From Escherichia coli (GTDB taxonomy: Bacteria > Pseudomonadota > Gammaproteobacteria > Enterobacterales > Enterobacteriaceae), in assembly GCF_044324785.1 (NCBI RefSeq), contig NZ_CP172127.1: DNA of 64,000 bases. One strand, 5' to 3'. A program made the translations under genes and the position numbers. Positions within the stretch are counted from its first letter, which is position 1. Every line of letters starts with the position of its first letter. Shown here one piece after another: positions 53,132-54,822 of the stretch. Below the pieces are notes generated by a model. The model had not been told where the DNA came from, made no database searches, and saw only the letters and a list, made by a program, of their open reading frames with translations.

Positions 53132-53552
53132 GGACGGTATATGACTAACCTGTTTGTTCGTAGCGGAATTTCTTTTGTCGATCGTAGCGAAGTTTTAACC
53201 CATATCGGTAATGAGATGCTCGCGAAAGGTGTGGTTCATGATACCTGGCCACAGGCATTAATTACCAGAGAAGCAGAATTCCCTACCGGGATAATGCTTG
53301 AGCAGCACGCCATTGCAATACCGCATTGTGAGGCGATTCATGCTAAGTCGTCAGCCATTTATCTGTTAAGGCCAACAAATAAAGTTCATTTTCAGCAAGC
53401 GGATGATGATAACGACGTGGCGGTATCGTTGGTTATTGCGTTGATTGTGGAAAATCCGCAGCAGCAATTGAAACTTTTACGCTGTTTATTTGGCAAGTTA
53501 CAACAGCCCGATATCGTCGAGACACTAATCACTCTTCCTGAAACCCAGTTAA

Positions 53553-54747
53553 GGAAGGTGCGAACAAGTTCCTGATATGAGATCATCATATTCATCCGGA
53601 GCGCATCCCAGAGGGACATCATGAGCCATCAACTCACCTTCGCCGATAGTGAATTCAGCACTAAGCGCCGTCAGACCCGAAAAGAGATTTTCCTCTCCCG
53701 CATGGAGCAGATTCTGCCATGGCAGAATATGACCGCTGTCATCGAGCCGTTTTATCCCAAGGCGGGCAATGGCCGACGGCCCTATCCGCTGGAGACCATG
53801 CTGCGTATTCACTGCATGCAGCATTGGTACAACCTGAGCGACGGTGCCATGGAAGATGCCCTGTACGAAATCGCCTCCATGCGCCTGTTTGCCCGATTAT
53901 CCCTGGATAGCGCCCTGCCGGATCGCACCACCATCATGAATTTCCGCCACCTGCTCGAGCAGCATCAACTGGCCCGTCAATTGTTCAAGACCATCAATCG
54001 CTGGCTGGCCGAAGCAGGCGTCATGATGACCCAAGGCACTTTGGTGGATGCCACCATCATTGAGGCACCCAGCTCTACCAAGAACAAAGAGCAGCAACGC
54101 GATCCGGAGATGCATCAGACCAAGAAAGGCAATCAGTGGCACTTTGGCATGAAGGCCCACATTGGTGTCGATGCCAAGAGTGGCCTGACCCACAGCCTAG
54201 TCACCACCGCGGCCAACGAGCATGACCTCAATCAGCTGGGTAATCTGCTTCATGGTGAGGAGCAATTTGTCTCAGCCGATGCCGGCTACCAAGGAGCGCC
54301 ACAGCGCGAGGAGCTGGCCGAGGTGGATGTGGACTGGCTGATCGCCGAGCGTCCCGGCAAGGTAAAAACCTTGAAGCAGCATCCGCGCAAGAACAAAACG
54401 GCCATCAACATCGAATACATGAAAGCCAGCATCCGTGCCAGGGTGGAGCACCCGTTTCGCATCATCAAGCGGCAGTTCGGCTTCGTGAAAGCCAGATACA
54501 AGGGGCTGCTGAAAAACGATAACCAACTGGCGATGTTATTCACCCTGGCCAACCTGTTTCGGGTGGACCAAATGATACGTCAGGGGAGAGATCTCAGTAA
54601 AAACCGGAAATAACGCCAGAAATGGTGGAAAAAATAGCCTAAATAGGCTGATTCGATGTGTTTGCGGGAAAAAAATCGGCCCAGATCCGCGAAATTTTAA
54701 TCAGCGAGTCTGCTTGGGAAGAAATGACCTGCTTATTCGCACCTTCC
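53553..54747 (+). mobile_element. IS5 insertion sequence, complete (1195 bp) with 4-bp target duplication TTAA
   Basis: Terminal inverted repeats ggaaggtgcgaacaag (53553-) and cttattcgcaccttcc (-54747); TTAA at 53549-53552 and 54748-54751; internal IS5 transposase ORF. Confidence 0.9.
53621..54613 (+). CDS. insH: IS5 family transposase
   Basis: 330-aa [38 protein letters not shown]... recognised as IS5 transposase; start codon choice uncertain. Confidence 0.9.
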
Positions 54748-54822
54748 TTAAAGGAATACTTCACAAAGTATGTTTTAGATTCAGACGAATAAATCCCTCT
54801 GTAACAATAAAAAGGACTATTT

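Follow-up and report, generated by a model that had tools for sequence, protein, structure and literature searches.

The window analysed here is a 64,000-nt stretch of Escherichia coli DNA (NCBI RefSeq assembly GCF_044324785.1, contig NZ_CP172127.1) that carries the galactitol (gat) operon in the order fbaB, gatY, gatZ, gatA', insertion sequence (IS), 'gatA, gatB, gatC, gatD, gatR, yegS. The genes on either side of the interrupted gatA are the following.

50986–51840, plus strand: gatY, tagatose-bisphosphate aldolase subunit, intact; matches the annotated 855-nt gatY in aligned loci
51869–53131, plus strand: gatZ, intact, 420 amino acids (aa); its length of 1263 nt equals that of the annotated gatZ of aligned loci
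54823–55107, plus strand: gatB, 94 aa, intact; it starts 75 bp beyond the element and has an AAGGA ribosome-binding site of its own
55111–56466, plus strand: gatC, intact, 451 aa; length equal to that of the annotated gatC of related loci
56514–57554, plus strand: gatD, intact open reading frame (ORF), 346 aa
57654–58433, plus strand: gatR repressor (DeoR family), intact ORF; related loci annotate a 774-nt DeoR/GlpR regulator

The gatY frame can be extended upstream to a GTG at 50980. All six genes, gatY, gatZ, gatB, gatC, gatD and gatR, are intact, which points to a recent insertion, and gatBCD has been pushed about 1.2 kb further from the upstream genes of the operon. In K-12 MG1655, gatR is interrupted (Lourenco 2016, PMC5094792). 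The fbaB-gatY intergenic region, just upstream of the gat promoter region, shows presence/absence variation of its own: a 78-bp block of strain BL12 (GCCTGATGCGACGC...CGTCTTATCATGCCTAC), which resembles a REP-type palindromic repeat, is absent from the window at about position 50811, and several small indels separate the two sequences in the same region.

The remainder of the window was surveyed as well. A Peptidase-S11 RNA motif (2490–2570, plus strand) runs up to the beginning of a 313-aa ORF (2566–3507, probably pbpG), and a TPP riboswitch (42839–42935, plus strand) lies upstream of ORFs of 262 and 266 aa (probably thiM and thiD); both are ordinary E. coli content and confirm the chromosomal context. 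On the minus strand, at 22901–22974 and 23509–23582, we found tandem matches to the Rfam family OrzO-P (RF02083; 88.8 and 91.7 bits, gathering score 60), an antitoxin RNA of the zor-orz type I toxin-antitoxin family; the pair is unrelated to the gat insertion. Downstream of yegS and yegR lies a 337-aa ORF (60423–61436, minus strand), and homologous loci annotate a phage or site-specific integrase, DUF5405 and hypothetical genes there. The right end of the window (60423 to 64000), covered to at least 80% in only 737 of 5,426 complete E. coli genomes, probably enters a prophage or integrative element.

The interruption of gatA is composed of the following parts.

53141–53575, plus strand: truncated gatA fusion ORF, 144 aa, consisting of 137 native residues followed by RKVRTSS and a TGA stop
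53549–53552: TTAA target-site duplication, left copy, equal to gatA nt 409–412
53553–54747, plus strand: ISKpn26-type element of the IS5 family, 1195 bp, identified by its identity to annotated copies
53553–53568, plus strand: left terminal inverted repeat, GGAAGGTGCGAACAAG
53621–54613, plus strand: transposase ORF, 330 aa, with its start at position 69 of the element, the same as in the ISKpn26 reference
54732–54747, minus strand: right terminal inverted repeat, GGAAGGTGCGAATAAG
54748–54751: TTAA target-site duplication, right copy
54752–54792, plus strand: orphaned 3' end of gatA, which encodes K138–E150 and the stop when joined to the final A of the TTAA

The element occupies exactly 1195 bp between the two TTAA copies, at nt 409–412 of the 453 nt of gatA, and its transposase runs in the direction of the gat operon. 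Its terminal inverted repeats match at 15 of 16 bp, with a single mismatch between GGAAGGTGCGAACAAG and GGAAGGTGCGAATAAG. A search for the repeat pattern, which is expected 0.12 times per window by chance, returned exactly two matches without mismatch, inverted with respect to each other and placed at the ends of the element. These ends are of the IS5-group type (about 16 bp, GGAAGGTGCGAA...), the first 16 bp being the same as in the IS5A of K-12 and in ISKpn26 copies. The target consensus of the IS5 family is YTAR, with a 4-bp duplication, and TTAA on both sides of the element conforms to it. Excision of the element together with one TTAA yields a 453-nt ORF that encodes a GatA of 150 aa with the C-terminal end LKEYFTKYVLDSDE and matches the GatA equivalog model over residues 1–150. 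The gatYZABCD-gatR gene order around it is also that of annotated homologous loci. A preliminary description of this DNA had reported a 1195-bp element with 16-bp inverted repeats and flanking TTAA, the recovery of an in-frame gatA on excision, and an IS5-family insertion that splits gatYZ from gatBCD; the present analysis reproduces all three, with gatYZA' on one side of the element and gatBCD on the other.

That description had also called the element a complete IS5. The family assignment holds, since the transposase scores 367 bits against NF033581, 'IS5 family transposase' (cut-off 140), over profile positions 1–285 of 285; the element is, however, not classical IS5. Identity to the IS5A of MG1655 is 90.8% and to the IS5 of PEC41 90.7%, whereas three RefSeq-annotated copies of 'IS5-like element ISKpn26 family' are 99.2–99.6% identical to it, and copies identical at 99–100% are named 'ISKpn26 family' in RefSeq, not IS5. 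We therefore discarded the K-12 IS5 (insH) as its identity and name the element ISKpn26, which is about 91% identical to IS5. Of the 110 differences from IS5A, 58 lie in the non-coding ends and 40 within the last ~150 bp. The regulatory properties of IS5 are said to reside in its non-coding ends; as it is chiefly there that ISKpn26 departs from IS5, the known end properties of IS5, activation included, cannot be transferred to it as given.

As to completeness, the element has its full length and both ends but lacks one T compared with 1196-bp copies. The ISKpn26 reference has 1196 bp and a 326-aa ORF at positions 69–1049 (PMC8796155). Relative to such copies, a T is deleted after position 54583, and because of this deletion the last five residues of the transposase are changed and four are added, replacing the QWERSQ end and giving 330 aa. 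RefSeq tags the exact 1195-bp variant as 'frameshifted' in strain WCHEC025985. Nevertheless, copies identical at 100% are present at unrelated loci in other E. coli (the ompC region, an MFS transporter gene, lpfD and a holin gene), and this distribution suggests that the 1195-bp variant may still be mobile, either alone or helped in trans by intact copies.

The insertion alters the C terminus of GatA, the EIIA component of the galactitol phosphotransferase system (PTS). In the fusion, GatA(1–137)-RKVRTSS, 13 codons (K138–E150) are exchanged for seven codons encoded by the IS. An earlier count of 14 gatA codons replaced by nine was incorrect: L137 is kept because its TTA codon belongs to the target site. 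The restored protein scores 298 bits against the NCBIfam equivalog NF007236 (cut-off 139; residues 1–150 of 150) and matches Pfam PF00359, PTS_EIIA_2, with E = 2e-21, residues 10–136 aligning to model positions 12–136 of 144. With the cut at residue 137, the last eight positions of the Pfam model (137–144) are missing, and since the cut lies in the terminal portion of the PTS_EIIA_2 domain, EIIA-Gat may be damaged. The AIPHCE region with His62, which we take to be the phosphorylation site of GatA, is retained in the fusion. Our search found no solved structure of GatA itself; the closest solved structures are 1XIZ and its epitope-scaffold derivatives, whose alignment ends at residue 138 and therefore offers too little to weigh the importance of the lost C terminus.

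A second possible consequence concerns transcription of gatBCD. We found no intrinsic terminator (hairpin plus U-tract) on the plus strand of the element, either by scanning or by folding of 54560–54830 combined with a T-tract search, and a consensus scan of the plus strand from 54600 to 54823 revealed no sigma-70-like outward promoter; in both the promoter and the terminator scans, counts were no higher than the shuffled expectation. A short palindrome, AGCCTAAATAGGCT, lies at 54636–54649 and is followed by ATTTTTTCC on the minus strand, with no U-tract on the plus strand; its sequence resembles a terminator that would act on transcription coming in from the right, antisense to the transposase. 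The transposase stop and gatB are separated by an untranslated spacer of 209 nt that does not have a C-rich, G-poor composition, i.e., is not rut-like, and the transposase ORF is preceded by a GAGGGA ribosome-binding site that we judged reasonable. Given the lack of a plus-strand terminator, the composition of the spacer and the ribosome-binding site of the transposase, transcription from the gat promoter may read through into gatB. No other part of the element is as rich in C and poor in G as 53873–53990 (plus strand), within the transposase ORF, where 80-nt windows contain about 40% C and 20% G; this region is a candidate Rho-loading site, should the ORF receive little translation when transcripts read through it.

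Taken together, these features suggest how the insertion might abolish galactitol utilization. GatA, deprived of its last 13 residues and extended by seven foreign ones, could be impaired in its EIIA function, and less transcription might reach gatBCD owing to Rho-dependent termination at about 53873–53990 in a transposase ORF poor in ribosomes; if uptake fails, the intact GatR would keep the operon uninduced. We consider it likely that the strain is Gat-negative, that is, unable to take up or use galactitol (dulcitol), through the damaged EIIA C terminus, polarity on gatBCD, or both. The altered galactitol phenotype with polarity on gatBCD that was first inferred for this locus thus stays plausible, and the sequence alone cannot separate the loss of EIIA function through truncation from reduced gatBCD expression. 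The strongest support for a Gat-negative strain comes from a gat-negative MG1655 clone in which an IS lies even nearer to the gatA stop, at nt 436 of 453. Its defect is hard to explain by five lost residues alone and hints at polarity, but the analogy is imperfect: the IS type in that clone is unreported, and its MG1655 background, with gatR disrupted, differs from that of the window.

The alternative that fares best is that the insertion is nearly silent, with the fusion working as an EIIA, gatBCD expressed by read-through, and the strain Gat-positive or leaky. The fusion lacks only 13 of 150 residues and keeps the catalytic-His region; more distant EIIA families, like 1XIZ, align with GatA only up to about residue 131–138; and gatB retains its ribosome-binding site behind an element in which neither an intrinsic plus-strand terminator nor a rut-like spacer was found. 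On the other hand, the GatA-specific model NF007236 is conserved through residue 150, the Pfam EIIA_2 model runs eight positions past the cut, and the insertion at nt 436, closer still to the stop, was seen in a gat-negative evolved clone. Moreover, about 1.2 kb of poorly translated sequence within an operon is usually polar. We accordingly regard a near-silent insertion as unlikely.

A still weaker case can be made for the element activating gatBCD independently of GatR, by an outward or hybrid promoter of ISKpn26 or by an IS5-like enhancer effect. Classical IS5 activates neighbouring operons (bgl, glpFK, fucAO and flhDC), and the element described here points the same way as gatB and ends 75 bp before it. 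Against this stand the lack of a sigma-70-like plus-strand site between 54600 and 54823, the poor quality, read by eye, of the candidate hybrid −35/−10 pairs across the right junction, and the concentration of 40 of the 110 ISKpn26–IS5 differences in the last ~150 bp. In addition, transport would need a working EIIA even with gatBCD expressed. Activation is therefore very improbable, and a Gat-negative strain remains our preferred reading.

All of these readings presuppose that the insertion is real, of which we are nearly certain. A Logan assembly contig of SRR31073010 is 100% identical to window positions 49141–53582 (4442 bp); it crosses the left junction and stops after 30 bp of element sequence, as expected when a short-read assembly breaks at a repeat. 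Contigs of two public sequencing runs encode the exact 144-aa fusion protein. Since the left junction occurs in a separately assembled contig, it is unlikely to be an artefact of the assembly analysed here. In the 5,426 complete E. coli genomes, identity to the flanks reached 98.4–99.7% at best, and the SRR31073010 contig was the only exact match. Mis-assembly classically occurs at IS elements, and none of the complete RefSeq E. coli genomes combines the gat allele of the window with the insertion; yet the misplacement of a repeated IS into gatA is scarcely credible, given a perfect 4-bp duplication, two intact element ends and exact restoration of the frame upon excision, the independent contig and the two runs that carry the fusion protein, and the occupation of the same gatA TTAA (nt 409–412) in two other lineages.

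To place the insertion among those of other strains, we examined the set of 5,426 complete E. coli genomes, mapping junctions in ten representative loci and assigning the others from match rows. Nine genomes carry an IS5-type element in the gatA–gatC region in the orientation of the window, and a query with a synthetically flipped element identified 62 further genomes with the opposite orientation, nearly all of them K-12 laboratory derivatives, with three natural isolates. The same-orientation count came from a query that joined only that orientation, and a bias towards the operon orientation cannot be claimed from these numbers. The insertions are distributed as follows.

gatA nt 409–412, TTAA: ISKpn26, same orientation, in BL12, GS04 and BHD6 (duck isolates)
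gatA nt 409–412, TTAA: ISKpn26, opposite orientation, with a deletion beyond it that reaches into gatD, in NCTC9041
gatA nt 203–206, CTAA: ISKpn26, same orientation, in FJ_Ec_21
gatA nt 203–206, CTAA: ISKpn26, opposite orientation, in SW070919
gatA nt 203–206, CTAA: classical IS5, opposite orientation, in W3110, C600 and related K-12 strains
gatA nt 55–58, TTAA: IS5 variant, in SY3626 and CUWW06, and in 14EC033 with an adjacent deletion
gatB: ISKpn26 or IS5, in CUPS04, E04 and the DH1/DH5alpha/JM109/XL1-Blue lineage
gatC: IS5, with a deletion, in PEC41

Eight other clean gat insertions (that of NCTC9041 on its left side only) are flanked by TTAA, CTAA or TTAG. Within gatA, which contains eight YTAR sites, seven independent events fall on three of the eight; this corresponds to a borderline P = 0.05 under uniform use, suggestive at most, with both independence and ascertainment uncertain, and we did not find the case for an insertion hotspot convincing. 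For at least two of the six other gatA events to fall on the TTAA used in the window, P = 0.17. It is tempting to speculate that TTAA at nt 409–412 and CTAA at nt 203–206 are preferred landing sites of ISKpn26 and IS5 through which natural E. coli repeatedly lose galactitol use, a proposal that we put forward tentatively and hold to be rather doubtful. The lineages concerned come from ducks, swine, poultry meat, wastewater and humans, and if the proposal were true, the gat-negative sweeps seen in the mouse gut would also run in the wild, even with an intact gatR. Several of the genomes show further decay of the operon: CUPS04 has an extra ISVsa5 and a frameshifted gatC, PEC41 has an IS1A and frameshifts in gatZ and gatD, and 14EC033 and NCTC9041 carry IS-adjacent deletions. 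Unlike in these decayed loci, the other gat genes of the window are intact, consistent with a recent insertion.

Altogether, we think it likely that a clean transposition placed ISKpn26, a member of the IS5 family, in the gatA TTAA (nt 409–412) of an E. coli chromosome, with a probable Gat-negative outcome. [quoted passage not shown] For annotation, gatA is better called a pseudogene interrupted by ISKpn26 than one interrupted by IS5. The type of event is already known, recurrent inactivation of the gat operon by IS elements at YTAR sites being well documented, and the window adds one more natural example of this operon as a frequent target.

The closest parallels are the isolates BL12, GS04 and BHD6 of a duck clone from China (NZ_CP079780, NZ_CP079772 and NZ_CP141791), which share the TTAA, the orientation and the element family of the window, as well as a truncated GatA that is likewise 144 aa long and carries the same IS-encoded tail; their operon is otherwise intact. 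The gat allele of BL12 is nonetheless different, its flanks being 2–3.5% apart, with SNPs at distances of 4 and 19 bp from the junction among the differences, and its element has 1196 bp, a 326-aa transposase and four SNPs plus a 1-nt indel relative to the copy in the window. These differences in flanks and element indicate an insertion event independent of that in the window. NCTC9041 carries ISKpn26 at the same TTAA from another independent event, but reversed.

The laboratory K-12 alleles, gatA::IS5 of W3110, C600 and J53 and gatB::IS5 of DH1, DH5alpha, JM109 and XL1-Blue, are likewise IS5-family insertions with a 4-bp YTAR duplication in genes of the galactitol PTS, and gatA::IS5 of W3110 is a listed known difference from MG1655 (PMC2072959). 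They differ from the window in that the element is classical IS5 (about 91% identical), in the opposite orientation and located at CTAA gatA nt 203 or in gatB, and in that gatR is also interrupted in their background (PMC5094792), whereas gatR of the window is intact.

During evolution of MG1655 in the mouse gut, every sequenced clone acquired a gat operon mutation, 79% of which were IS insertions, and all clones with gat mutations were gat-negative (Barroso-Batista 2014, PMC3945185). Table S2 of that study lists IS insertions in gatA at nt 203/453 (three of the sequenced clones, with a further occurrence in population 1.11) and at nt 436/453; counted on the gatA sequence, both sites are YTAR. 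The gat locus has been described as a mutational hotspot that mutates to gat-negative at a rate of ~1e-5 per generation (Lourenco 2016, PMC5094792). In contrast to the window, these insertions arose in laboratory evolution of MG1655, in which gat is constitutive since gatR is disrupted; the IS type at gatA is not given, and no insertion is listed at nt 409 (PMC3945185).

Two systems from Klebsiella pneumoniae extend the comparison. The best-known role of ISKpn26 is in mgrB::ISKpn26, which confers colistin resistance and in which the same named element acts as an insertional knock-out, although host species, target gene and selective agent (colistin) are other than those of the window. Finally, in ureC::IS5075 (PMC8269217) the IS is unrelated, targets Tn21-like inverted repeats and lies in a different operon; yet there, too, an element inserted a few codons before the stop created a gene-IS fusion, the phenotype was lost and polarity on the downstream genes was suspected.
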